DNA of 64,000 bases from TPA_inf: Saccharomyces (GCA_000146045.2 BK006939.2:256001-320000), one strand, 5' to 3'; positions 375-22,164 are shown, numbered from the stretch's first letter. The notes: generated by a model not told the origin, from the letters alone. Numbers and translations are program-made.

Positions 375-1958
375 TTAAATTCCAAGTCTTTTCAATTGTT
401 CTAAACGTTCATCAATGGCATGTTCAAATTGGTTTGAAGTATTTGTCCGCTCACTTAGTAACTTGGCATGAATACATTGTAGCGCTTTTATGGAGTCAGA
501 TTCATTGATAACGCAGGATATGTTTATTTCATTTGCCCCTTGAGAAATCATTTCAATGTTGATGCCTTCTTCAGCAAGAGTAGTAAACATGGTACCAGCA
601 ATGCCGATGTATTGTTTCATATGTTTACCAACTAATGAAACAATAGACAACTTCTTTGTGATATCAACAGAACCTAAAATTCTCAATTTTTCCTCAGCTT
701 GTCTCAGAGATTTTAATGAGTCTGCATCTGGAATGGGCAAAGCCATCGAAACATGAACTTCAGAAGTAGATATTAAATCTACGACTAACTTGTACTTATC
801 CAGGATGGTAAATATTTGAGCTAGGAAACCATGGGATAGGGTTTTCTTATTGGAATGAATGTTGATGACGAAAATGTCATTTTTGGTGGTGATAGCAGTG
901 GCACCTCTCTTTCTCTTTTCATAGAAAGATGAGGATAAGTTCTCAGGAGGATGTGGTGGAGTAGATTCACCCTTCTTTGCTACATTATCTGGGTAGATAA
1001 TGGTACCGTTACCTAATGGATTTTGAACATTCTTGATTCTAATAGGAATCTTAGCCCTAATAACTTGTTCCATCGTAAAAGGATGTATAACTTCGGAACC
1101 ATAATATGTTAATTCAGAAGCTTCTTCTGGAGTAACACTGTCTAGCAAACGTGCTTCAGGAACCTTACGAGGATCAGCAGTAAATATACCATCAACTTCC
1201 TTCCAAACTTGTAGTTCATCAGCATTTACAGCAACTGCTATCAAAGCGGCACATAAATCGGTATAGCCACGACCAACACCATTCAGAAGACCAGTTGGAA
1301 CTAAACCAAAAAACCCTGTAAAGACTGGAACGATACGCTCTTTAGCACTTACAAAGGGGGCCAATTTTTCTTTCAATGCTTGAACCAGGAAAGTGTAGAA
1401 ACTGTTATCCAAAGCGCTGGCACTGAAATCAGAGGGAACAATGTGGCTCAAATCCACATATTTGGCCTTACAGCCACGGTCATTACATAAAGCAGTCATG
1501 AACAAACAACTCAACTTCTCACCACATGACATCACCAGATCTACTGTACGTGAACTCACTTCACCCAAAACTTTTGAAGCATTTAAATATTTCTTGACCA
1601 GTTCAAGTTCTTTATTGGTATCATCCACTAACTTGGCTTGCAAGGCAGGATTGAGAATGAAGCGGTCGGCATTATCGATATGGTCTTGTCTGATAACTTC
1701 GATAATGTCTTGAAATTCAGATTCTTGCGAAGCCAAATCACAACATTTCAAAAGACGAGAAGTGGTACCTTCAGCCTTGGTGTATGAAGAACGGGCGGAA
1801 CAAACGACAGCGACATTATTGTTTGGGCCGTCAGGTTTAGAATAGTGCTTCACAATGTCATCCACTATTTGGACGGGAAATTTACCGACAGATGTACCAC
1901 CGAACTTTTGCACGACCCAGTTCGAATGACTTGATGTAGGTTGGAAATCCATTGGCAT
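375..1958 (-). CDS. HOM3: Aspartate kinase (L-aspartate 4-phosphotransferase), 527 aa
   Basis: Full-length ORF with an ACT-domain C-terminus; recognised as yeast Hom3 (YER052C). Length matches 527 aa. Confidence 0.93.
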   Translation of the reverse strand: MPMDFQPTSSHSNWVVQKFGGTSVGKFPVQIVDDIVKHYSKPDGPNNNVAVVCSARSSYTKAEGTTSRLLKCCDLASQESEFQDIIEVIRQDHIDNADRFILNPALQAKLVDDTNKELELVKKYLNASKVLGEVSSRTVDLVMSCGEKLSCLFMTALCNDRGCKAKYVDLSHIVPSDFSASALDNSFYTFLVQALKEKLAPFVSAKERIVPVFTGFFGLVPTGLLNGVGRGYTDLCAALIAVAVNADELQVWKEVDGIFTADPRKVPEARLLDSVTPEEASELTYYGSEVIHPFTMEQVIRAKIPIRIKNVQNPLGNGTIIYPDNVAKKGESTPPHPPENLSSSFYEKRKRGATAITTKNDIFVINIHSNKKTLSHGFLAQIFTILDKYKLVVDLISTSEVHVSMALPIPDADSLKSLRQAEEKLRILGSVDITKKLSIVSLVGKHMKQYIGIAGTMFTTLAEEGINIEMISQGANEINISCVINESDSIKALQCIHAKLLSERTNTSNQFEHAIDERLEQLKRLGI

Positions 1959-8891: not shown

Positions 8892-9785
8892 TTATACACG
8901 ACAATTAGAAATTTCGAAAACCATGATATCAGATGCGCCGAGTCTTTTCAATTCATCTAAAACAACACCCTTCGTTTTTCTCTCAATCATGGAACTAACA
9001 GCAACCCATCCTTCATCGTCAATTTTGGAAATGGTTGGTGCTCTACGGCCAGGCGTCACCTTCAACAGTTCAGGCAGCTTGTCTTCAGGTGCGTTATAAA
9101 TACATGAAACGAACCTTTGAGCGGTCATGACACCTTCAATTCTTGATTTGATAGTAGCAATCAAACTCTTATCGCTCTTTGGGTTCTTTGATTCTATTAG
9201 GTAGGCACTTGTGCTTAGGACGGTGGCAATATCAACTAAACCTGCTGCCCTCATTGTCTCACCACTCTCTACAAGATCTACAATAGCATCACCAATTCCC
9301 AGAGCACATGATGCCTCCACGGAACCACTGACAAACTTTATCCTTGTGGTCATTTTTTCAACAGTAGTACCTTCCAAATCGGCAAAGTATTTTTCAGCAA
9401 GTTTCACGAAACTGGTAACAATGGTTTTGCCAATTAACTGTTCTGGCTTTTTATACTCGCCATTTACGGGGACTTGTACCTGCAATTTACAGTTACCAAA
9501 TTGCAAATCGATTGCTAAGTCTACGTCGACGTTAGATTCACGAACTTGGTCAACACCAGTTATACCAAGATCACATTTACCTTCACCAACAAAAGTTGGA
9601 ATATCTGCAGCGGGCAGAAAGACCAACGCTACAGGTAAGCTTGTGCTTAGTGCAATGTCTAATCTTTGAGAGCGGTGAAAGGTAATATCAGCACCATTCA
9701 AAATAGAAACACTTTTAGAATATAAACGACCTTTCTTTGGGATTGCAAACAGTAGTCTATCGGTTAGATGGTTCACCAAATCCAT
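8892..9785 (-). CDS. HIS1: ATP phosphoribosyltransferase (histidine biosynthesis step 1), 297 aa
   Basis: 297-aa ORF recognised as yeast His1 (HisG family). Confidence 0.93.
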   Translation of the reverse strand: MDLVNHLTDRLLFAIPKKGRLYSKSVSILNGADITFHRSQRLDIALSTSLPVALVFLPAADIPTFVGEGKCDLGITGVDQVRESNVDVDLAIDLQFGNCKLQVQVPVNGEYKKPEQLIGKTIVTSFVKLAEKYFADLEGTTVEKMTTRIKFVSGSVEASCALGIGDAIVDLVESGETMRAAGLVDIATVLSTSAYLIESKNPKSDKSLIATIKSRIEGVMTAQRFVSCIYNAPEDKLPELLKVTPGRRAPTISKIDDEGWVAVSSMIERKTKGVVLDELKRLGASDIMVFEISNCRV

Positions 9786-10511: not shown

Positions 10512-12113
10512 CTAACGACCGAAGTATTTTAATTCTAAAGGTCTTAAGATGTTGTAGATGATGAAGGCCCAACTTGCACCCAACTCGAACCCAATGTCAC
10601 CACCATATTTACCAATTAAGCGGCCAATTTCACCAACCCAATAGGTTTGACACATACCCAATGCAACACCGAAGGCACCAACAATTAAGGCAGCAGTACC
10701 TGCGATACCGATAGGTAGATGCTCCCAATTATCCCAATCATCAATATTGTAAGCACTGAAGGAACGTCTGTAGAAGAAATGTTCTGAACATGAGATGGCA
10801 ATGTAAATAGCTAAGTAGTAACCGATAGAATCCATGAAATTCTCCATAAAGCCATCAAAGTAATAGGTAGCAGGGATGGAAATACCTAAAGTGGCAGCAT
10901 TACCTGCCATTGTCCAGACTACTCTTGGTATTTTAGCCAAAGGTGCCCACAAAGCTTGAGCGGATAAAGCAACAGTATACATATTTGGAATATTATTTGC
11001 AATAGTGGACAGAGCTAACAAAACGCAGCAGAATTGACCAAATCCGTTCAGAGAGTTAGGAACCAGGATAGCATATATGACACCACCCATAGCATTTTTG
11101 TCATAATATGCCTTCCAGGTTGGGTCATTAAGAGCAGCCATAGCAGAAGCAGCACCAAGAATCATGGTGAAAAATAGAGGGAACGCTAGACCAGCAACTA
11201 GGGAGAAAAAAATCTTGTACTTGTTTGTACTCTTTGGCATATAAACAGTGTAGTCAGCTGCATAGGTCGTCCATCCTGCGGCAAAACCGAAAATAGATGA
11301 ACCAAAAGAAAGAACACTACCTGCAGTAGTTGCACCTCCTACCCATTCACCACCTTTAAACTTTCCTGATCTCGATAGTTGGGCAATAATAACCAAAAAG
11401 ACGGCAAAATTGGGTACCCATGACCATTTCTCGTATGCATGAATGACACTGTAACCAAAAAAAGTCACAAGCACGGTACCACCAATAATGATCAGACAAC
11501 CGGCCCAAATAGGACAGACGTGGCCGGAGCCTTCATTCACCATATTCAGCAGTTGTGCGGATACTGAGGTATTCACAATACCCCAACCGACACAAGCAAT
11601 AACGTTAATAAGAGAGAAAATTCTTGCCGTTACATTACCAACCAGATATCTTGATAAAATCATCTGTCTTAAGCCCAGTTCTGCACCAAAGACAGAAAAG
11701 AACGCAACAAATATCAACCCCATTATATTGAAAAATATGATAACTAAAACACTTTGACCAAAATTTAGACCGAACACCATGGGTCCTAAGGCACCCAAAG
11801 CATATGATGCAATGACCATATTAGCTGAAAACCACATGGACGCAGCATTCAGTATGGAATCGTCCGTTTTTTCATCCTCTGTAACTGGTTCAACACCCTT
11901 TGTTTCTGCATTCAAACTGGCAAAGAACTTATGGAACCACGATAATTTTGTGGCCTCTGATGATTCAACGATATACTGTTGGTCATCTTCGGAAGTTGCT
12001 GTGAAAGTTTCAGAAGCGGCTACCTTCTTTTCGTTTTCCAAGCTTGAGCCTATTACAGGAGATCTCTTCTCCAAGTCTTGGATTTCGTAAACATTATTTC
12101 CCTCTTCCAACAT
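10512..12113 (-). CDS. FCY2: Purine-cytosine permease (NCS1 family), 533 aa
   Basis: Polytopic NCS1 transporter. 533 aa matches Fcy2 (YER056C). It is the paralog of the two downstream + strand genes. Confidence 0.92.
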   Translation of the reverse strand: MLEEGNNVYEIQDLEKRSPVIGSSLENEKKVAASETFTATSEDDQQYIVESSEATKLSWFHKFFASLNAETKGVEPVTEDEKTDDSILNAASMWFSANMVIASYALGALGPMVFGLNFGQSVLVIIFFNIMGLIFVAFFSVFGAELGLRQMILSRYLVGNVTARIFSLINVIACVGWGIVNTSVSAQLLNMVNEGSGHVCPIWAGCLIIIGGTVLVTFFGYSVIHAYEKWSWVPNFAVFLVIIAQLSRSGKFKGGEWVGGATTAGSVLSFGSSIFGFAAGWTTYAADYTVYMPKSTNKYKIFFSLVAGLAFPLFFTMILGAASAMAALNDPTWKAYYDKNAMGGVIYAILVPNSLNGFGQFCCVLLALSTIANNIPNMYTVALSAQALWAPLAKIPRVVWTMAGNAATLGISIPATYYFDGFMENFMDSIGYYLAIYIAISCSEHFFYRRSFSAYNIDDWDNWEHLPIGIAGTAALIVGAFGVALGMCQTYWVGEIGRLIGKYGGDIGFELGASWAFIIYNILRPLELKYFGR

Positions 12114-13422
12114 TCTTATAAATCGTTATAATAGAGGATAGGATGTTTTATATGCGAAATTTATATGGATATTGTTGTGAATACTATTACAGTTAAGCTT
12201 ACTTATCTACATTTCAAAGAAAAATGCCTCCAACGCGTTTTAGACTCACCACTATTTTACTGTCTAAATATTTTTAATGGATATTTATATTAAAACCATT
12301 ATCTTGGTTGGTTCCCTAACATCTTGATCATCGAGAAAAAAAAAAAAAAAAGGACATGAAAAATTCTGACAATGAAAAAAAAGAAATTAAAGACTCATAA
12401 TTATTTATTGATAAGGCGAAGACGTAGCAACTATATGTACGTAGAAGTCAATGGCAATCGCGATAAAGCTGTGCATTAATGACCGAACGCGGGCGGCAGA
12501 CATTTCTGAAAAAGAGTCAATTTGTACGAATACGCCCCCCACTCGGGAAAGGCGATAAAATCGACTGATATTTAGTTCCTTGAGGCCGTTCCATTGGTGA
12601 CAAAAGAAAACATGCCGCTCGATTTTCTAACACTAAGCAAATCCGCAGAGGAGTATTGCAGTCACTTTGACCGAATAAGACCAGTATCCATCGATTTTCT
12701 GTCTTGGATGACCTCTTTGCTGTTCTCCACAGGTAAATCACTTAAAAAAGATATGAGATACGTTAGATTAATTAATTTCAGAAATTAATATGATTACGGA
12801 AACTTGGTTGAAAGTGGCTGAATTTACGACGTAATCTGTCTTGACATCTTTTTTTTTTTCAGCGAGCATTCTCTAGGATTTTTTGTTTACTTTCCACTTG
12901 GATTTTATCTGTAGGCTTTATCAAGTTCCTGTATGTATGGTTGTGCAAGGCACTCTTCTTCATAAAGGAAAAGATGTGTTGAGATTTGTAAGGCTTTTCA
13001 TCAGTGTTAGATCTGAGGTGGTGTTCACATTAAATTAATCGACGCAGGATTTGGCGAAAGCTTCTGGCATAATGTTTGGTGTTTGTGGTGTGTGATTTCT
13101 TTTTTTGATTTTTTCTTTTGCAGTTGTATTCCCATACATTAAATTGTTCGTGGCACATGAAAAAAAAAAAATAAAATATGAACAGGTCTTTTTTATAGCA
13201 GAGTTACGTCGTCTACAGTTGGACAGGCGATTGACTACTAAATTCCCATGGCTATGGATGACGATGATTAATGAAGAAATAGTAGCTCGACAACATTACA
13301 AAAAGCATTATTCATAGAGCGCTAGAGCCATGAAAGTTTTCTTGTGATATGAATTATTTTTATTCGTGCTTTATATAAAACAGTTAATTAGGTACATAAG
13401 AAAAGTAACATTTTCTTAAAGT

Positions 13423-14185
13423 TTATTTCTTAGCCTTCTTTTCAGATTTCTTGGCAGCTTCGGTTTGTTCCTTGACAACCTTCTTGACAATTTTTTGTTC
13501 TTCGATCAAGAAAGCTCTAATAATTCTTTCCTTAACACAGTTGGCACATCTGGAACCACCGTAAGCTCTGGAAACAGTCTTGTGGGTCTTGGAAACAGTG
13601 GCGTATTGTCTTGGTCTCAAAGTAGAGATACCTTGCAAAGCGCTACCACAGTCACCACACTTTGGTCTGGTAGCTAACTTCTTGACATGTTGGGCACGCA
13701 AAATACCACCTGGGGTCTTAACAACCTTGATTTTGTTAGAACGGGTGTTGTCTATTTGAAAATGTTTTCAGAAAGTTGGTATACTTTCTCATTTGAAAAA
13801 TATGTTAGTACGAAATGTTTCAATAGGAAGGAGTTCGAGAAAACTTTAAAAGAAATTTTCGTAACACAGATTGAGATTATTAGCTCTAGTCAGTATCAGG
13901 GTTAAAAGTGGCTGCTCTTATTAACTATCGTTTTTCTTCTCATTGCTACTAATATTGTATTATTTCTGGACACAATATTTCGCGCAGAATAAGTTATTGA
14001 TAGTGGATTACAAAAACGGGGTAAATTGCTTTTGATAACTATACTAGGACCCCTGACATGGTATCCTCTCCTCTCTTGCTCTTTTTTAGTTGAATAATCA
14101 TCATCTCGTCAGAATTTCTCGTAATTTATAAGTGTGCCTTTAACATACATGGATTTCTTCTTCTGAAAGTAACACGTTGGGCCAT
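13423..14185 (-). CDS. RPL34A: Ribosomal protein L34 (eL34), 121 aa, interrupted by one intron: exon 1 14149..14185, intron 13752..14148, exon 2 13423..13751
   Basis: Exon 1 encodes [13 protein letters not shown] (reverse complement of 'atggatttcttcttctgaaagtaacacgttgggccat'). Donor GTATGT is read as 'acatac' at 14143-14148. Acceptor AG sits before 'ACAACACCCGT'. Exon 2 continues [24 protein letters not shown]... to the stop. 37+329 nt gives 121 aa. Confidence 0.88.
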
Positions 14186-14486
14186 CTTTGGTTGTTCTGT
14201 TATGCAGTCTACACGTTAATACCGTTTAACACTAAGCGTAATTAATCTATAATATTTCAATTCCTTCTAGATAATATCCTCTGCGCCTAGGCTCACGAAA
14301 TTACACGGAGGAAGCGTCGACCAGGCGACTCGTTGGTAGGGGACCAAGCGCGAGTAACTACCAGAATCGCCTTGGCTCAGTAGAAAATGACGGCCTAAAG
14401 GGAACCTAGCGGGGGAGCGTAGTCGTAAGCGGGAACAGCGAAAGTCAAGCTTCTTTTTTTTTTCACAATATATGGAAAAAAATTTA

Positions 14487-14500
14487 TCACCCATACATAC
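14487..14500. promoter_or_regulatory. Rap1-like site (TCACCCATACATAC) about 300 bp upstream of RPL34A, followed by a T-rich tract
   Basis: Matches the Rap1 consensus ACACCCRYACAYM at 13 of 14 positions. Typical architecture for a ribosomal-protein promoter. Confidence 0.5.
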
Positions 14501-14736
14501 CACTAAATGTGTTATATATTTGAGAACACCTTTACATCCTAATGTTTAATGGAAAAAACAGTCCTCGAAGAGCATCGTATTTGTAGAAGGAACCAAGTAA
14601 ATTAGTATACAATGTACAATGTACATTCTTCAGATGGGAAGGTGATGAAAGTCATACTTCTATGGGCTTTATATTATAAAGCTAAAAAATACGTAGTAAA
14701 ATCCTAAGTTCTAAAAGACGCTATTAAGACTTGCCC

Positions 14737-15126
14737 TTAATCTCTTTCGGCAGCAATGGCTTCCATTTCCATGTCAACGCCTAATGGCAATGCTGCAACA
14801 GCAACGCATGATCTGGCAGGTTTGTGAGTATTGAAGTACTTGGCGTAAACGGAGTTAAACTCAGCAAAGTGATTGATATCTGCCAAGAAAATGTTAACTT
14901 TTACGACCCTGTCCAATGAGGAATTGCTTGCTTCTAGAACATTCTTAATGTTTTGAATCACCTGTTCAGCCTTATCAGCAATGGAACCTTCAACTAACTT
15001 GTTGTCTGGGGTCACTGGAATTTGGCCAGAAAGGAAAATCAAATTGTTCACTTTCATGGCATGGGAGTATGAAGCCGCAGCAGCTGGAGCGGATTCACAA
15101 ATAACGGGAGTTAGCGTGGTGACCAT
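14737..15126 (-). CDS. HMF1: YjgF/RidA-family protein, 129 aa (the ORF-track N-terminal extension is not used)
   Basis: Protein starts MVTTLTPVICESAPAAAASYSHAMKVNN...; RidA/YjgF signature. Matches Hmf1 (YER057C, 129 aa). The track ORF begins 23 codons upstream. Confidence 0.85.
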   Translation of the reverse strand: MVTTLTPVICESAPAAAASYSHAMKVNNLIFLSGQIPVTPDNKLVEGSIADKAEQVIQNIKNVLEASNSSLDRVVKVNIFLADINHFAEFNSVYAKYFNTHKPARSCVAVAALPLGVDMEMEAIAAERD

Positions 15127-15767
15127 AATTCTAATGTAATGATGATGTTCGAAGGGTAAATTTTCTTTCGCTTTTTCGTGGAAACCAAATATCAAAGTTG
15201 TTCCTTATCATGTATCCGTTTGATAATGAAGTAAATTAGTATTTCTTTTGTAGGTCAGCAGCTCGCGCTATGGAGAAAGGAGTTATAATGAAACCACGTG
15301 AGCACGATGAAATAGCAATATGTTACTATTGATTACCGGATTAGAATGGTTAAAATGGTGAAATAAGAAGAATGATTATTGTGTGCTCAGTATCGGTTGA
15401 AACCACTAGTTTTGGCGCTTGACTCCACTCGTGAGTCATGTTTGGACTATATATGTGCCTTGAATATATATAAATATATATATTGCTATATGATCCCGCT
15501 GTTTCCAAGAGTAGTAATTACTAGACGGCTGTTGGCATATGTCAATGAGAGATTAGTGTACTCTTCGTACCATCAATCCGCCCATAATCTTCTAAGTGAT
15601 CTTCCGATCGTATCCATCGAACTTTACTAAAGGCTCTTTTCGGGGTTACCCCTAAATTTTCAGTATTTGATTTGTATTAATGTTTAGCATTCAGGTAGTC
15701 GTAGTAAACGGACACATTTGACATTCAACGACGGTACACACGGTAGGAGACGTCAATTTCGGCTGAG

Positions 15768-16091
15768 ATGAGTAGGGCTAGCAAGATAACGTTTGCAGCT
15801 TCCTGTCTGATAACGGCAGCGACGGTAGTGGGCGTGCATTATGTGCAAGAAATGGAAAGGGAAACTTTGCATCAGGGTCCGATAAAAGATGCTAAACGAG
15901 TCGAAGAAAAGAGGTTGAGAAAGACAAACGGAGTTGCATCATTAGATCCCACAAAAGAAAGGAAAAGGTACTTCAATATGAGTGAACACGAGGAACAAAA
16001 AGAGTTGCGAAAGAAGTATGAGACCATGCAACCGCTTAGTGGAGAAGTTGTGACCAAAGATGGAGAGGTGGTTAAAGAATCTAAGAAATAA
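15768..16091 (+). CDS. PET117: Cytochrome c oxidase assembly factor, 107 aa
   Basis: 107-aa ORF with an N-terminal transmembrane helix. Matches Pet117 (YER058W). It shares a divergent promoter with HMF1. Confidence 0.85.
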   Translation: MSRASKITFAASCLITAATVVGVHYVQEMERETLHQGPIKDAKRVEEKRLRKTNGVASLDPTKERKRYFNMSEHEEQKELRKKYETMQPLSGEVVTKDGEVVKESKK

Positions 16092-16623
16092 ACACCTGTC
16101 GGCAGTAGTTTACCTCTCTATTATAGACTACTCTTGTTTGTATATATGTAAGAATCGTGTAATTATTTTCAAGAAGCCTTCAAATTGAAGGAATAATCTA
16201 AAACTCGAATAATATCAATGTTAATCAATAACTATAATCAAGACCTTAATGTGCCTGCTTGCCCCTTTGGGGATTTTACCTCTATTTTGAAATTCCATTC
16301 AATCAATCTCTCGACGATCTCTAAGGTAAGATCTCGCCTTGATGTGGCTCTTTTTCTTCCGCCCTTGCGGAAAAAATCTGAATGAACGTAATTTACCTAA
16401 GAGATAACAAGGCTAACCTTGATAGAACCTTAAAAAACAGTATTGGTAATTGCAATAGCACCAACCGTAAGTGAGCTAAACTAGTGAAAGATTTTCTAAA
16501 TCATAACGCGCGGAATTCCAGTTAATATATTACGTAGTCATCCCTCATCATAGAACTGTTTTTTTTTTTTGCAAAGTATTGAACCAGTTATTAGTTAAGT
16601 TAATTGTAGCAAATAGCGCCGGT

Positions 16624-17886
16624 ATGTCTATCAAAGGTGATTCCCCCTCATCAACAAATGCCAGTAGTAGTCCGAAGTCTACATATTCAATACAATCGGA
16701 TGATAAAGCAAACCTTGGCAGTGGTAACGTCGATATACGTACAGATAATTCACAACAGGACAGTAATAATAGACGCGATATTGTGGTAGTGACGAGGGTA
16801 GCTTCTGAAGAGACTTTAGAATCACAATCATCTACTTCATCAATGGGAATTAGACCAGAATCATCTTTTAACTATGAGGATGCTTCTAACCAAGCTAGGG
16901 TCGAAATGAATAACAGGGTACATGGCTCAAATATGAACACAATTAACAAATATTATCCAGTACGATTCCCAAAGAATAACGAAAGGCAATTGAGCGACAC
17001 AAATAATTTAAATGAGAAAGTGCAAGGCACACATACAGTTCAATCATCCACCCAGGAAGACAAAATACTCGACGGTGACACAAGCAACTCACAAGTAACC
17101 CCGTCTTTGAACATTGCAGAGTTTCCCACAGACAAGCTTCTTAAAATGCTGACAGCGTTACTAACTAAAATTATTAAGTCAAATGATAGGACGGCAGCGA
17201 CAAATCCTAGTTTGACACAAGAGATTGAGAATGGTAGGTGTCTTGCTTTAAGTGACAATGAAAAGAAATACTTAAGCCCCGTTCTGGGGTTTAGAGGGAA
17301 GCACGTACCACAAATTGGTCTTGACCAATATTTCCAGAGGATCCAGAAATATTGCCCCACAACGAATGATGTATTTTTATCGCTCCTCGTGTACTTTGAT
17401 AGAATATCCAAGAGATGCAATAGTGTCACTACGACCCCTAAAACTAATACTGCAAAACATGAATCTCCCTCAAATGAAAGCTCTCTAGATAAAGCTAACA
17501 GGGGCGCTGACAAAATGTCCGCATGTAACAGTAACGAAAATAATGAAAATGACGATTCAGATGATGAAAATACAGGAGTTCAAAGGGATTCAAGGGCTCA
17601 TCCTCAAATGTTCGTAATGGATTCACATAATATTCACAGATTAATCATAGCAGGTATTACTGTCAGTACGAAGTTTCTGAGCGATTTCTTCTATAGCAAT
17701 TCAAGATACTCAAGGGTAGGTGGGATATCTTTACAAGAACTCAACCATTTGGAACTGCAGTTTCTAGTTTTGTGTGATTTTGAACTTTTGATATCAGTCA
17801 ATGAATTGCAGAGATACGCGGACTTACTATACAGGTTTTGGAACAACGCAAAAGCTCAATCGCAAGCACTAGTTACGGGCATGTAG
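16624..17886 (+). CDS. PCL6: Pho85 cyclin, 420 aa
   Basis: C-terminal cyclin fold. Starting at the second Met (MSIKGDSPSS...) gives 420 aa, matching Pcl6 (YER059W). The track ORF is 15 codons longer. Confidence 0.82.
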   Translation: MSIKGDSPSSTNASSSPKSTYSIQSDDKANLGSGNVDIRTDNSQQDSNNRRDIVVVTRVASEETLESQSSTSSMGIRPESSFNYEDASNQARVEMNNRVHGSNMNTINKYYPVRFPKNNERQLSDTNNLNEKVQGTHTVQSSTQEDKILDGDTSNSQVTPSLNIAEFPTDKLLKMLTALLTKIIKSNDRTAATNPSLTQEIENGRCLALSDNEKKYLSPVLGFRGKHVPQIGLDQYFQRIQKYCPTTNDVFLSLLVYFDRISKRCNSVTTTPKTNTAKHESPSNESSLDKANRGADKMSACNSNENNENDDSDDENTGVQRDSRAHPQMFVMDSHNIHRLIIAGITVSTKFLSDFFYSNSRYSRVGGISLQELNHLELQFLVLCDFELLISVNELQRYADLLYRFWNNAKAQSQALVTGM

Positions 17887-18566
17887 AAATGCGTAATATG
17901 CAAGTAGATATATTTACATACACAGTTTCTCTCAAAGGTAGTAATTATCTTATGTGTTAACGTACGGTTGCTAAGAAATAAGCATGGTAACTTTCTTAGG
18001 TAATTCTTTGGTATTAAGATATATTCTGAATTACGGTTTGGACTACTTTATTGTTCAGAGATAAGAAACATGTTGAGCAGCACTTTATGGTGTTGCTATA
18101 TTCCCGTTCAAATACAACAGCAACAAAAAATGCTTATCCCTCATCAAATTGAACAGAAAAAAAAAAACCATATTATTTTATTCAAGCTTATCGCATGATA
18201 GACTGTATATGGAGCAGTCAAAATTGACTGCTAACTGAGTTTTCATTTTGGAAATCTTATCATTTTGCGTTCACCGATTCTAACTTATTTTCATCACGAA
18301 TACGAGAAGGGCAAAGGTGCCGGCGTCATTATGTGACGGAAAGAAAAATTCGATAAGGCCTTTTTTTTTTCACTCATCGTATTGCCAAGCAATTTTAGTC
18401 AGAAGTAACACGTATATATATAAGGGCGTAGACGTCCCTCTTAACAGATACTCTGTAGTCCGTGCTAACGTAAACACAGCATTAAAAGTGCTTGTTACTT
18501 CACTATTATTAGCATTGAGGCGCGTGTGCTCGGAAAACCTACCATATTATAAAAGGGCTAACAAAT

Positions 18567-20153
18567 ATGCCTCAAACGCACGAAATGTCCCTGAACGGCA
18601 CTCAATACTTAAAATATGAACTTAAAGACCTTGAGTCTCGAGCTCACGATGCAAAGACTCCTTCAACAAATGAATTCTATGATGATGTAGAATCGCACGG
18701 AACAGAAGAATTAGTTGAAGCTAAACTGTCGTTTTTGAACAGAATTGCTGCTGGTTTAAGTGCCGAGACAAAGGGTATTGAACCGATTACAGAAGATGAA
18801 AAAACTGATGATTCTATACTGAACGCTGCATCTATGTGGTTTTCAGCAAATATGGTTCTGCCTGCTTATGCCATTGGCGCCCTAGGGCCTATGGTGTTTG
18901 ATCTAAATTTCGGCCAAAGCGTTTTCGTTATTATTTTCTTTAACCTCTTAGGCTTGGTATCAGTTGCTTTCTTTTCTGTTTTCGGTGCAGAGCTGGGCCT
19001 AAGACAGATGATTTTGTCTAGATATTTAGTTGGCAATATCGCAGCCAGGATCTTCTCTTTCATCAATTTTATTGCCTGTATCGGTTGGGGTATCGTTAAT
19101 ACCGTAGCAAGCTCGCAAGTCCTGAATATGGTTAACCCCGGTCATCAATGTCCTCTCTGGGCTGGTTGTATAGTTATTATCGGTGCTACTGTAATTGTAA
19201 CTTTTTTCGGCTATGGAGTCATTCATGCTTACGAGAAATGGGCGTGGGTACCAAATTTTGCCGTTTTTTTGGTAATAATTGCTCGTTTGGCAAGGTCTAA
19301 AAAATTTGTCCTTGGGGAGTGGACATCTGGTCCTACTACAGCAGGTAACGTGCTTTCATTTGGATCAACAGTTTATGGGTTTGCTGCAGGCTGGACAACA
19401 TATGCGGCTGACTATACCGTTTATATGCCAAGGAAAACGAACAAGTATAAAATTTTTTTCTCGCTTGTAGTTGGGTTAGCAACACCATTATATTTTACTA
19501 TGATACTTGGTGCAGCTGTAGCAATGGCAGCTATCGGCGATCCAGCCTGGAAGACGTATTATGACGAAAATTCCATAGGTGGTTTAACTTTTGCCGTTCT
19601 TGTCCCTAATTCTGTTCACGGATTCGGTCAGTTCTGTTGCGTGTTATTGTCTCTGTCCACTATCGCTAATAATGTTCCCAACATGTATACTATTGCTTTA
19701 TCGGTGCAAGCCACGTGGGAACCTCTTGCGAAAGTCCCAAGAGTTATTTGGACTTTATTAGGCAATGCGGCCGCACTGGGTATTGCCATTCCTGCCTGCT
19801 ACTATTTTTCTACCTTCATGAATTACTTCATGGATTCCATAGGTTATTATTTGGCTATTTATATTGCCATTGCATGTTCAGAGCATTTTATTTATAGGCG
19901 TTCCTTCAGTGCTTACAATGTTGATGATTGGGATAGTTGGGAACGTCTACCTATCGGCATTGCAGGTACTGCTGCCTTAATTGTTGGTGCCTTTGGCGTA
20001 GCGTTGGGTATGTGCCAAACTTATTGGGTTGGCGAGATCAGCCGTTTGATCGGAGACTACGGTGGTGATATTGGATTCGAGTTAGGACTAAGTTGGGCAT
20101 TTATAGTTTACAACATTGCTAGACCCTTTGAGCTCAAGTACTTTGGTCGTTAA
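18567..20153 (+). CDS. FCY21: Purine-cytosine permease paralog, 528 aa
   Basis: NCS1-family protein highly similar to Fcy2; matches YER060W. Confidence 0.9.
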   Translation: MPQTHEMSLNGTQYLKYELKDLESRAHDAKTPSTNEFYDDVESHGTEELVEAKLSFLNRIAAGLSAETKGIEPITEDEKTDDSILNAASMWFSANMVLPAYAIGALGPMVFDLNFGQSVFVIIFFNLLGLVSVAFFSVFGAELGLRQMILSRYLVGNIAARIFSFINFIACIGWGIVNTVASSQVLNMVNPGHQCPLWAGCIVIIGATVIVTFFGYGVIHAYEKWAWVPNFAVFLVIIARLARSKKFVLGEWTSGPTTAGNVLSFGSTVYGFAAGWTTYAADYTVYMPRKTNKYKIFFSLVVGLATPLYFTMILGAAVAMAAIGDPAWKTYYDENSIGGLTFAVLVPNSVHGFGQFCCVLLSLSTIANNVPNMYTIALSVQATWEPLAKVPRVIWTLLGNAAALGIAIPACYYFSTFMNYFMDSIGYYLAIYIAIACSEHFIYRRSFSAYNVDDWDSWERLPIGIAGTAALIVGAFGVALGMCQTYWVGEISRLIGDYGGDIGFELGLSWAFIVYNIARPFELKYFGR

Positions 20154-20571
20154 CGAAAGTTCATTTAAATGTTTCGCTATTTTAGTCTTTGTAATGTAAC
20201 ATAAATGGCTCTAGTATGCAAATCATTAAAAAATAGCATGTATGTTAATTAAATTATCACGGCTCATTCATTTGAGTTGATAACGCAATTCTGATAAGCA
20301 TATCACGTGACTGTGGTTCTAAGAGTTACTCCGATCGCCAGTAAATACTTTATGAGACGTTGCATTATTTCTGTTTAGTTGATAAATTTTGATTTCTAGT
20401 CTGTTGAAAGCCTAATGCATGCAGATGACATAAATGTAGTCTGTTTTTGCACTGGTGATTTGTAAACCAGACAAATATATAACATGATAACCAAATTGTT
20501 TGTTATAAGATACGCTTGTCAGATTGAAATGGAGGGTGTTTCAGAAGGTGACTAAAATATCGAAGAAAAGT

Positions 20572-22164
20572 ATGCCAGAAAAGTTAGCCATGTCAATGGT
20601 CGATATAAAAGATGCGGGGAGTGAACTAAGGGACCTCGAATCTGGAGCTCTGGACACAAAATCTTCCGCCGCTGATGTATACTATGAGGGTGTAGAATTG
20701 CATAGAACCAACGAATTCATTGATAATAAGCCGTCCTTTTTCAATAGGATTGCAGCTGCTTTAAATGCTGAGACGAAAGGTATTGAACCAGTTACAGAAG
20801 ATGAAAAAAATGATGACTCGATACTCAATGCCGCCACTATATGGTTTTCAGCTAATATGGTGATTGTAGCCTATTCCGTAGGTGCCTTGGGTCCTCTAGT
20901 ATTTGGCCTAAATTTCGGCCAAAGTGTTTTAGTTATCATTTTTTTCAATATTTTGGGTTTGATCCCTGTTGCATTATTCTCACTTTTTGGGGTAGAACTG
21001 GGCCTAAGACAGATGATTCTATCGAGATATTTGGCTGGTAACATCACAGCAAGATTTTTCTCTCTTGTTAATGTCATTGCTTGTGTCGGTTGGTGTGTTT
21101 TAAATATTTCTGTTTCTGCTCAACTTTTGAATATGGTGAATGAAGGCTCTGGGCACAACTGTCCTATTTGGGCAGGTTGTTTGATTATTGCTGGTGGTAC
21201 CGTGCTTGTGACTTTTTTTGGTTACAGTGTCGTTCATGCATACGAAAAATGGTCGTGGGTACCCAATTTTGCTGCCTTTTTGGTCATTATTGCCCAACTA
21301 TCGAGATCAGGAAAATTTAAAGGTGGTGAATGGGTAGGGGGTGCAACTACTGCAGGTGGTGTTCTTTCTTTTGGTTCATCTGTTTTTGGGTCAGCTGCGG
21401 GTTGGGCGACTTATGCAGCAGATTACACTGTTTATATGCCAAAGACCACAAGTAAATACAAAATTTTTTTTTCCGTAGTAGCCGGTCTAGCGTTCCCTCT
21501 ATTTTTCACCATGATTCTTGGTGCTGCTTGCGGTATGGCGGCCCTTAATGACCCAACCTGGAAGTCATATTATGATAAAAACGCCATGGGTGGTGTCATA
21601 TATGCTATCCTGGTCCCTAACTCTCTAAACGGATTCGGTCAATTCTGCTGTGTTTTGTTGGCTCTTTCAACTGTTGCTAATAATGTCCCTGGAATGTACA
21701 CTGTCGCTTTATCCGCTCAAGCTTTGTGGGCACCTTTGGCTAAAATACCAAGAGTAGTCTGGACAATGGCAGGTAATGCTGCCACTTTAGGTATTTCCAT
21801 CCCTGCTACCTATTACTTTGACGGCTTTATGGAGAATTTTATGGATTCCATTGGTTATTATTTGGCTATTTATATTGCCATTGCATGTTCAGAGCATTTT
21901 ATTTATAGGCGTTCCTTCAGTGCTTACAATATTGATGATTGGGATAATTGGGAGCATCTACCTATCGGTATCGCAGGTACTGCTGCCTTAATTGCTGGTG
22001 CCTTTGGAGTAGCGTTGGGTATGTGCCAAACTTATTGGGTTGGTGAGATCAGTCGTTTGATCGGAGAGTACGGCGGTGACATTGGGTTCGAGTTAGGCGG
22101 AAGTTGGGCGTTCATCATCTATAACATTGTAAGACCTTTAGAACTCAAATATTTCGGTCGATGA
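20572..22164 (+). CDS. FCY22: Purine-cytosine permease paralog, 530 aa from Met17 of the track ORF
   Basis: NCS1-family protein; matches YER060W-A (530 aa). The middle is nearly nucleotide-identical to FCY2 and the 3' end nearly identical to FCY21 (see findings). Confidence 0.88.
   Translation: MPEKLAMSMVDIKDAGSELRDLESGALDTKSSAADVYYEGVELHRTNEFIDNKPSFFNRIAAALNAETKGIEPVTEDEKNDDSILNAATIWFSANMVIVAYSVGALGPLVFGLNFGQSVLVIIFFNILGLIPVALFSLFGVELGLRQMILSRYLAGNITARFFSLVNVIACVGWCVLNISVSAQLLNMVNEGSGHNCPIWAGCLIIAGGTVLVTFFGYSVVHAYEKWSWVPNFAAFLVIIAQLSRSGKFKGGEWVGGATTAGGVLSFGSSVFGSAAGWATYAADYTVYMPKTTSKYKIFFSVVAGLAFPLFFTMILGAACGMAALNDPTWKSYYDKNAMGGVIYAILVPNSLNGFGQFCCVLLALSTVANNVPGMYTVALSAQALWAPLAKIPRVVWTMAGNAATLGISIPATYYFDGFMENFMDSIGYYLAIYIAIACSEHFIYRRSFSAYNIDDWDNWEHLPIGIAGTAALIAGAFGVALGMCQTYWVGEISRLIGEYGGDIGFELGGSWAFIIYNIVRPLELKYFGR

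Follow-up and report, generated by a model that had tools for sequence, protein, structure and literature searches.

Do the three purine-cytosine permease genes that lie close together on chromosome V of Saccharomyces cerevisiae evolve as separate copies, or do they keep exchanging sequence with one another? The question is raised by a stretch of 64,000 nucleotides (nt), analyzed here at its full length and called the window, whose genes FCY2, FCY21, and FCY22 encode proteins identical to their S288C counterparts. An earlier note on this DNA had described FCY22 as a mosaic of FCY2 (middle) and FCY21 (3' end) and had ascribed this to gene conversion within a cluster of three NCS1 permease genes. 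The cluster itself stands as described: all three genes are intact open reading frames (ORFs), each with a full-length PF02133 domain (Transp_cyt_pur, NCS1; 397–401 bits over profile positions 1–440, with a curated cut-off of 23.5 bits), and FCY2 and FCY22 form an inverted pair 8.5 kb apart, while FCY21 and FCY22 form a tandem pair 0.4 kb apart. As to the exchange, we consider it very probable that recurrent short-tract interlocus (ectopic) gene conversion has acted among FCY2, FCY21, and FCY22, since paralogs differ less than orthologs at synonymous sites inside the shared blocks, segment trees group by species, and the tracts are lineage-specific and in part still segregating.

Within S288C, alignment of the three coding sequences (CDSs) by codon gave whole-CDS nucleotide identities of 81.6% for FCY2/FCY22, 74.3% for FCY21/FCY22, and 72.8% for FCY2/FCY21, and along FCY22 the nearest paralog switches abruptly, which bears out the mosaic. 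In this three-sequence alignment, the sites that FCY22 uniquely shares with FCY21 and with FCY2 number 58 and 18, respectively, in the N-terminal 260 nt, 16 and 154 at alignment nt 601–1305, 13 and 0 at nt 1306–1371, 0 and 6 at nt 1372–1466, 14 and 1 at nt 1467–1535, and 5 and 14 in the last 88 nt. This switching means that the 3' end of FCY22 is itself a patchwork of FCY21-type, FCY2-type, FCY21-type, and FCY2-type sequence. The three informative-site patterns are unevenly distributed over the seven regions (chi-square P = 1e-34, an optimistic value because the regions were picked post hoc), and the nearest-paralog switches are also present at third codon positions alone. When polymorphic columns were permuted in a GENECONV-style test (10,000 shuffles), no permutation reached either the 116-nt perfect FCY2/FCY22 run in block T3 (35 polymorphic sites) or the 78-nt perfect FCY21/FCY22 run in block T5 (12 polymorphic sites), and block T2 (14 polymorphic sites) gave P = 0.003; among FCY2/FCY21 runs, none was significant in this test. 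Synonymous divergence is likewise far from uniform along the genes, with a proportion of synonymous differences (pS) between S288C paralogs of 0.00–0.24 within the blocks versus 0.5–0.8 outside them.

The details of the mosaic differ in part from the earlier description. An FCY2-like middle of about 95% identity is found inside discrete blocks (95.3–100%; Table 1), not across the region as a whole, as overall identity in the center of FCY22 (21139–21843) is 90.4% with FCY2 and 70.5% with FCY21, and the intervals between the FCY2-type blocks are 78–85% identical to FCY2. Both of the FCY22 and FCY2 strings that had been quoted in illustration exist, at offset positions (FCY22 from 21286; FCY2 11296–11366, minus strand), and the stretch is 91.0% identical. 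Similarly, the 3' end (21841–22100), for which about 95% identity to FCY21 had been given, is indeed closer to FCY21 (93.1%) than to FCY2 (86.2%), but this affinity is broken by an FCY2-type patch at 21910–21994. The peptide IACSEHFIYRR, earlier pointed out as common to FCY21 and FCY22, does not speak for an FCY21 donor: the motif is ancestral to all three paralogs, the derived form is that of S288C FCY2, and the evidence for an FCY21-type 3' end is carried by synonymous sites.

Orthologous loci from S. mikatae, S. kudriavzevii, and S. uvarum, brought together with S. cerevisiae in a 12-sequence codon alignment, allow these tracts to be placed in time. Gene order and orientation of the trio are identical in all four species, which indicates that the paralogs predate this species set. 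Within the S. cerevisiae blocks, however, paralog identity (0.93–0.99) exceeds ortholog identity (0.78–0.89), and in the same windows pS is 0.00–0.24 for FCY22/FCY2 versus 0.3–0.85 for S. cerevisiae and S. mikatae orthologs; in the 3' zone, S288C FCY22/FCY21 pS is 0.06–0.18. Trees built by segment changed accordingly along the gene. Segment B (alignment nt 301–690) groups by gene (FCY22 clade 99%, FCY21 clade 98% bootstrap); segments C (T1) and G (T3) join S. cerevisiae FCY2 to S. cerevisiae FCY22 (86% and 83%, respectively), and segment E does the same for the two S. uvarum genes (96%). Segment H (nt 1366–1590) joins S. cerevisiae FCY21 and FCY22 (95%) and groups the whole trio by species in S. 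uvarum (93%), S. mikatae (78%), and, more weakly, S. cerevisiae (60%). The derived F of IACSEHFFYRR, common to all three S. mikatae paralogs, is an example of such three-way homogenization. Tract positions also differ by species, with high-identity FCY2/FCY22 patches at alignment nt 1321–1440 in S. mikatae, nt 961–1140 and 1261–1440 in S. uvarum, and nt 601–800 and 1021–1140 in S. kudriavzevii. The FCY21 body (nt 301–1365) showed no part in the exchange, the FCY21 clade being recovered at 87–100% in segments B–G. These comparisons indicate that the S288C tracts postdate the split of S. cerevisiae from S. mikatae and are partly still polymorphic, and the homogenization that the earlier note called recent is thus recent inside the blocks, where pS falls below the ortholog values. 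It is not recent throughout: the FCY22 N-terminus is FCY21-like and its body is nearer to FCY2, at a baseline of ~78–83%, in all four species, and for that reason the N-terminus and part of the FCY2/FCY22 affinity are ancestral.

Exchange can also be followed among S. cerevisiae strains, for which we used ten other haplotypes chosen for carrying the S288C FCY21 protein. Of 60 distinct single-nucleotide polymorphisms (SNPs) in FCY2, 39 have the base of a paralog (simulation expectation 13.6 ± 3.1, maximum 26 in 5,000 runs), as do 15 of 25 in FCY22 (expectation 5.6 ± 2.0, maximum 13). A run of 15 SNPs in FCY2 of one strain (L017; Table 1) probably marks a segregating FCY22-to-FCY2 tract, another strain has four FCY22-type SNPs at FCY2 nt 837–849, and three strains carry FCY21-type bases at FCY2 nt 1407–1410, one of them also at nt 1392. 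Within FCY22, FCY21-type bases were found at nt 1376–1401 in six of the ten strains, four of which have them at nt 1360 as well (a run of 5–6 SNPs), and one strain has four FCY2-type SNPs at nt 1329–1335. Inside block T4 (21931–21972), FCY21-type bases occur in four to six of the ten strains, depending on the site, which indicates that the FCY2-type patch is polymorphic there. Separately annotated strain proteins repeat the FCY22 variants I454V, N459S, and H462R, and those of FCY21 contain an FCY22-type cluster (V473A, D497E, L508G, V514I, A518V, and F521L); L508G, together with V199N, is a two-nucleotide change. The strain haplotypes suggest transfers in several directions, and conversion is recurrent, ongoing in S. 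cerevisiae, and apparently multidirectional. FCY22 is therefore a patchwork as proposed, but not the only one, as FCY2 and FCY21 receive tracts too, and conversion within the cluster now has the support of ortholog comparison and strain haplotypes in addition to that of a single sequence.

Genome-wide GENECONV screens of yeast families, of the type of Drouin 2002, have reportedly been made and, being older, may list these genes, although they did not surface in our literature searches. As prior descriptions touching the natural mosaic, those searches gave only PMC3409178 and PMC10218751, and both concern laboratory selections, from which interlocus conversion at the FCY locus is already known; the natural-history detail given here is incremental. 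Quinto-Alemany et al. 2012 reported that 28 of 59 mutations in 5-fluorocytosine (5-FC)-resistant clones were FCY2 segments swapped for FCY22, with most tracts ending at FCY2 nt 1143 and many starting at nt 968 (PMC3409178), and of 27 adaptive fcy2 alleles obtained under nitrogen starvation, 10 had arisen by conversion from FCY21 or FCY22 (PLoS Genet 2023;19:e1010747, PMC10218751). In our numbering, FCY2 and FCY22 differ at 25 of the 27 published tract endpoints; nt 968 is the first mismatch past the perfect block T2 (nt 922–967), and nt 1143 is the last mismatch ahead of the 116-nt perfect run of T3 (nt 1144–1259). The endpoints thus adjoin T2 and T3, and these natural identity blocks bracket the interval (FCY2 10971–11146) that FCY22 replaced in most of the published 5-FC-resistant recombinants. 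Natural and laboratory events involve the same three genes on the same chromosome and short non-crossover replacement tracts. The laboratory studies, however, used selection against FCY2 function and recovered FCY2 alone as recipient, whereas the natural footprints are fixed or segregating, affect all three genes in four species, and have probably been filtered by selection, with paralog-specific residues surviving.

Mechanistically, one copy would suffer a break or a stalled fork and be repaired from a paralog template without crossover, and this repair would paste in from tens up to some two hundred nucleotides along with their synonymous sites. Synthesis-dependent strand annealing is the likely pathway, with mismatch repair possibly limiting tract length. 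Tracts would be kept inside the CDS because homology ends at the start and stop codons: among the paralogs, no homology was detected in the 300–600 nt of 5' or 3' flank (z < 1), which points to exchange limited to coding sequence. The same flanks rule out a larger duplicated segment. The conserved layout, with FCY2 inverted, fits a history of non-crossover events alone. Within each paralog, purifying selection may then remove tracts that overwrite paralog-specific residues, and such conserved residues appear to leave the islands of divergence seen between tracts. The perfect-identity blocks T2 and T3, left by earlier events, could serve as homology anchors for new ones, a role suggested by the fit of the published laboratory tract endpoints, and swaps of the interval between them would be purged from natural FCY2 because they are inactivating.

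Table 1. Coordinates of the FCY genes, blocks, and other features (window positions unless a locus is named; T1–T5 are the identity blocks of S288C FCY22)
Feature	Position	Strand	Remarks
FCY2 CDS, 533 aa	10512..12113	-	inverted relative to FCY21 and FCY22; S288C protein identity; PF02133 E = 1.5e-118
FCY21 CDS, 528 aa	18567..20153	+	ORF; S288C protein identity; PF02133
FCY22 CDS, 530 aa, ATG 20572	20572..22164	+	tandem, 418 nt downstream of FCY21
FCY21-like N-terminal region of FCY22	20572..20798	+	58 sites shared with FCY21, 18 with FCY2; in all four species
FCY22 5' core, no conversion signal	20799..21138	+	79.4% to FCY2, 72.6% to FCY21; paralogs monophyletic across species
T1, FCY2-type, 190 nt	FCY22 21192..21381	+	95.3% to FCY2 11295-11484 (-), 71.1% to FCY21
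T2, FCY2-type, 46 nt	FCY22 21484..21529	+	100% to FCY2 11147-11192 (-)
T2 in FCY2	11147..11192	-	CDS nt 922-967; left edge of laboratory tracts 968-1143
Divergence island between T2 and T3	FCY22 21530..21705	+	85.2% to FCY2
T2-T3 divergence island in FCY2	10971..11146	-	contains IANNIPN codons at 10983-11003
VANNVPG, FCY22 codons 368-374	21673-21693	+	corresponds to FCY2 residues 371-377; within T2-T3 island
T3, FCY2-type, 134 nt	FCY22 21706..21839	+	99.3% to FCY2 10837-10970 (-); pS 0.00
T3 in FCY2	10837..10970	-	CDS nt 1144-1277; right edge of laboratory tracts ending at nt 1143
T4, FCY2-type, 85 nt, nested in T5	FCY22 21910..21994	+	100% to FCY2 10682-10766
T5, FCY21-type, 191 nt	FCY22 21853..22043	+	95.8% to FCY21 19842-20032 (+); first 78 nt perfect
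Three-way 3' zone	FCY2 10626..10850 (-); FCY22 21826-22050 (+); FCY21 19815-20039 (+)		segment H tree
Probable segregating FCY22-type tract in FCY2	10767..10836, CDS nt 1278-1347	-	15 consecutive FCY22-equal SNPs, strain L017
Tail-repeat region	20572-20800; loci L005 10001-10300, L001 11977-12330, L003 11958-12260

Could the pattern have arisen without continuing exchange? A single ancient chimera, in which unequal crossover or one recombination event fused an FCY21-like 5' end to an FCY2-like body and the copies have diverged passively since, would leave FCY22 of four species with the FCY21-like N-terminus and the ~78–83% FCY2-like body that we see, and it also accords with a whole-protein tree that joins FCY22 to FCY2 (98%) even though FCY22 lies in tandem with FCY21. 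It may account for an ancestral layer of the mosaic; as the sole cause it is contradicted by blocks in which within-species paralogs are closer than orthologs, by segment trees that group by species, by block positions that vary among species, and by runs of paralog-matching SNPs still segregating in S. cerevisiae, and we regard it as very unlikely. The same bases might instead be held by constraint on protein, codon usage, or mRNA structure. The 3' zone is protein-conserved in all twelve genes, and its G+C content at third codon positions (GC3; four-species average) is 0.43–0.46 versus 0.34–0.38 elsewhere in the genes, a difference that is descriptive only and may also hint at GC-biased gene conversion. 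Constraint, though, would hold orthologs too, and these differ at 30–85% of synonymous sites where the S. cerevisiae paralogs differ at 0–24%, while the informative-site switches are equally sharp at third codon positions, which makes this explanation exceedingly improbable. Hardly credible either is an artefact in which paralogs were misassembled or collapsed, be it in the reference or in the strain assemblies: perfect shared blocks of up to 116 nt could mislead short-read, reference-guided assembly, yet the window proteins match the finished S288C reference and many independent assemblies, the same arrangement and similar mosaics appear in chromosome-level assemblies of three other species, and the laboratory recombinants came from sequenced resistant clones.

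Several points nevertheless count against recurrent conversion or limit what can be said of it. The FCY21-like N-terminus and the ~80% FCY2/FCY22 baseline occur in all four species and could go back to an old chimeric duplication. Several of the strain assemblies are, to judge from their record types, probably short-read, and paralog cross-mapping could mimic some of the polymorphic tracts. Outgroup polarization of the homogenized S288C sites gave 23 in the FCY2 state and 23 in the FCY22 state under a majority scheme (sites with the same state in two or more outgroup species; fixed-in-three and single-outgroup schemes were also tried), with states mixed even within one perfect block. The even split is likely due to outgroup species carrying tracts of their own, and as far as these sequences go, donor and recipient are not assignable from outgroups for most S288C blocks. 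Non-reciprocity, moreover, lies beyond the reach of sequence alone and is established by the published experiments only, and the selection and homology-anchor steps of the mechanism are ones that we infer.

FCY22 has residues of its own, distinct from those of FCY2 and FCY21. FCY22-only residues kept in four species are AATIW, GWCVLNI, FGSAAGW, and STVANNVPGMYT, the last of which stands where FCY2 has I-A-N-N-I-P-N (371–377). This segment is IANNIPN in FCY2 and VANNVPG in FCY22, each in four of four species, and IANNVPN in FCY21, and throughout the four species FCY22 has Gly at the position of FCY2-N377. We take FCY2 371–377 to be a substrate-recognition segment, and it is said, in the title of a paper by Ferreira et al. 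of 1997, to be important for the active carrier conformation. By the 371–377 criterion, FCY22 would be a PF02133 family member and not an FCY2-equivalent transporter. Among the ten strains, three have FCY2 I375V (nt 1123 A>G), the FCY21/FCY22 state, within this segment (window 10983–11003), and one further strain has synonymous FCY22-type bases beside it, at FCY2 nt 1137 and 1143.

In the segment free of conversion, FCY22 orthologs have a ratio of nonsynonymous to synonymous substitution rates (dN/dS) of 0.05. All four Saccharomyces species have an intact FCY22 ORF, and one paper reports growth defects upon fcy22 deletion (PMC12299217). The low dN/dS and the reported deletion defects argue that FCY22 is a constrained gene. 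A figure legend in PMC3409178 calls it a ‘pseudogen’, a status ruled out by the intact ORFs, the dN/dS, and the conserved FCY22-specific residues. This sets the locus apart from human CYP21A2/CYP21A1P (PMC3843699), in which conversion from the neighboring paralog creates disease alleles; there, too, a nearby copy gives inactivating residues and conversion is a major source of loss of function, but the donor FCY22 is not a pseudogene, given its uninterrupted ORF in the four species and its dN/dS of ~0.05. Whether the cluster goes further and works as a natural cassette system, with FCY22 (less so FCY21) kept by selection as a divergent copy whose own residues, such as the Gly at the FCY2-N377 position, retune or inactivate FCY2 once transferred, with perfect-identity blocks that past conversions renew sustaining a high rate of exchange, and with conversion as the main source of variation, seems to us doubtful. 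If it did, conversion and not point mutation would drive standing variation in purine-cytosine uptake, and conversion would also be the main source of variation for 5-FC susceptibility and nitrogen-starvation adaptation.

Partial concerted evolution is the closer likeness. As reviewed in PMC3924837 and PMC3924818, concerted evolution by interlocus conversion with islands of divergence makes paralogs closer within species than orthologs, and the FCY cluster shares with those cases homogenized synonymous sites, polymorphism shared between copies, and islands at functional sites. Compared with such cases, the FCY homogenization differs in being partial and patchy, with three partners in two geometries and the FCY21 body excluded. 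The cluster adds no new principle, interlocus gene conversion being a textbook process; it offers a compact and tractable case of partial concerted evolution in which fixed, segregating, and induced tracts can be compared at the same nucleotides. In practice, FCY2, FCY21, and FCY22 have to be analyzed segment by segment, as their trees, dN/dS, and duplication dates will otherwise be wrong, and variants in them should be called from short reads with caution, given perfect paralog blocks of up to 116 nt. In nature as in the laboratory, loss of FCY2 function, which underlies 5-FC resistance and nitrogen-starvation adaptation, can arise often by copying from a neighbor.

The history of the cluster reaches beyond Saccharomyces. 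The order in the window is HIS1 (8892–9785, minus strand), FCY2, a block with HMF1 and PCL6, FCY21, FCY22, and CEM1. K. africana (locus L008, 100–11584) has HIS1 - FCY - FCY - RPL34 - HMF1 - PET117 - PCL6 - FCY (inverted), that is, FCY genes at the same two positions as in S. cerevisiae, but with the tandem pair on the HIS1 side, and N. dairenensis (L009, 6200–11623) has a tandem FCY pair beside HIS1. In a protein neighbor-joining tree, the Saccharomyces trio is monophyletic (96% bootstrap), and one member of the K. africana tandem falls in a separate 100% clade with NCAS_0E03260, KNAG_0L01430, and NDAI_0E04320. That the trio is monophyletic despite K. africana copies at both positions could reflect independent duplications or very old concerted evolution, and FCY exchange may long predate the genus Saccharomyces. 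Among the K. africana copies, no clear recent tracts were found; their overall identity is 72%, and the peaks reach just 0.84–0.86. Within the genus, the 90% clusters that contain the S. cerevisiae FCY proteins also take in those of S. paradoxus, S. jurei, S. arboricola, and S. eubayanus.

Several observations concern gene models and alleles. The mechanical FCY22 ORF opens at an upstream in-frame TTG (20524), and we placed the start at the in-frame ATG 20572, which gives 530 aa, the same as S288C FCY22. The FCY22 annotation of S. kudriavzevii runs to 556 aa, with 26 additional N-terminal residues that may stem from an ATG farther upstream. Fused FCY21+FCY22 gene models of 1055–1066 aa (window 18567–22164), in which the final FCY21 residues are changed (Y525V, G527Q, and R528K), occur in the public annotations of several S. 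cerevisiae strain assemblies; these fusion proteins look like an automated gene-model artefact, and one of them is the representative of a 90% cluster that contains FCY2 and FCY22. In FCY2, G at nt 796 (window 11318; S266G, as in FCY22) and T at nt 441 occur in all ten other strains, and S288C carries the minority allele at both sites. Lastly, FCY22 of S. mikatae, S. kudriavzevii, and S. uvarum has ~13 extra residues in its N-terminal tail, apparently a tandem copy of the G-T-(D/E)-E-L-V-E-x-K-L unit just before them; these residues are absent from S. cerevisiae FCY22 and from every FCY21. A deletion in the S. cerevisiae lineage appears more likely here than conversion from FCY21, because identity between S. 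cerevisiae FCY22 and FCY21 is not elevated in this region.

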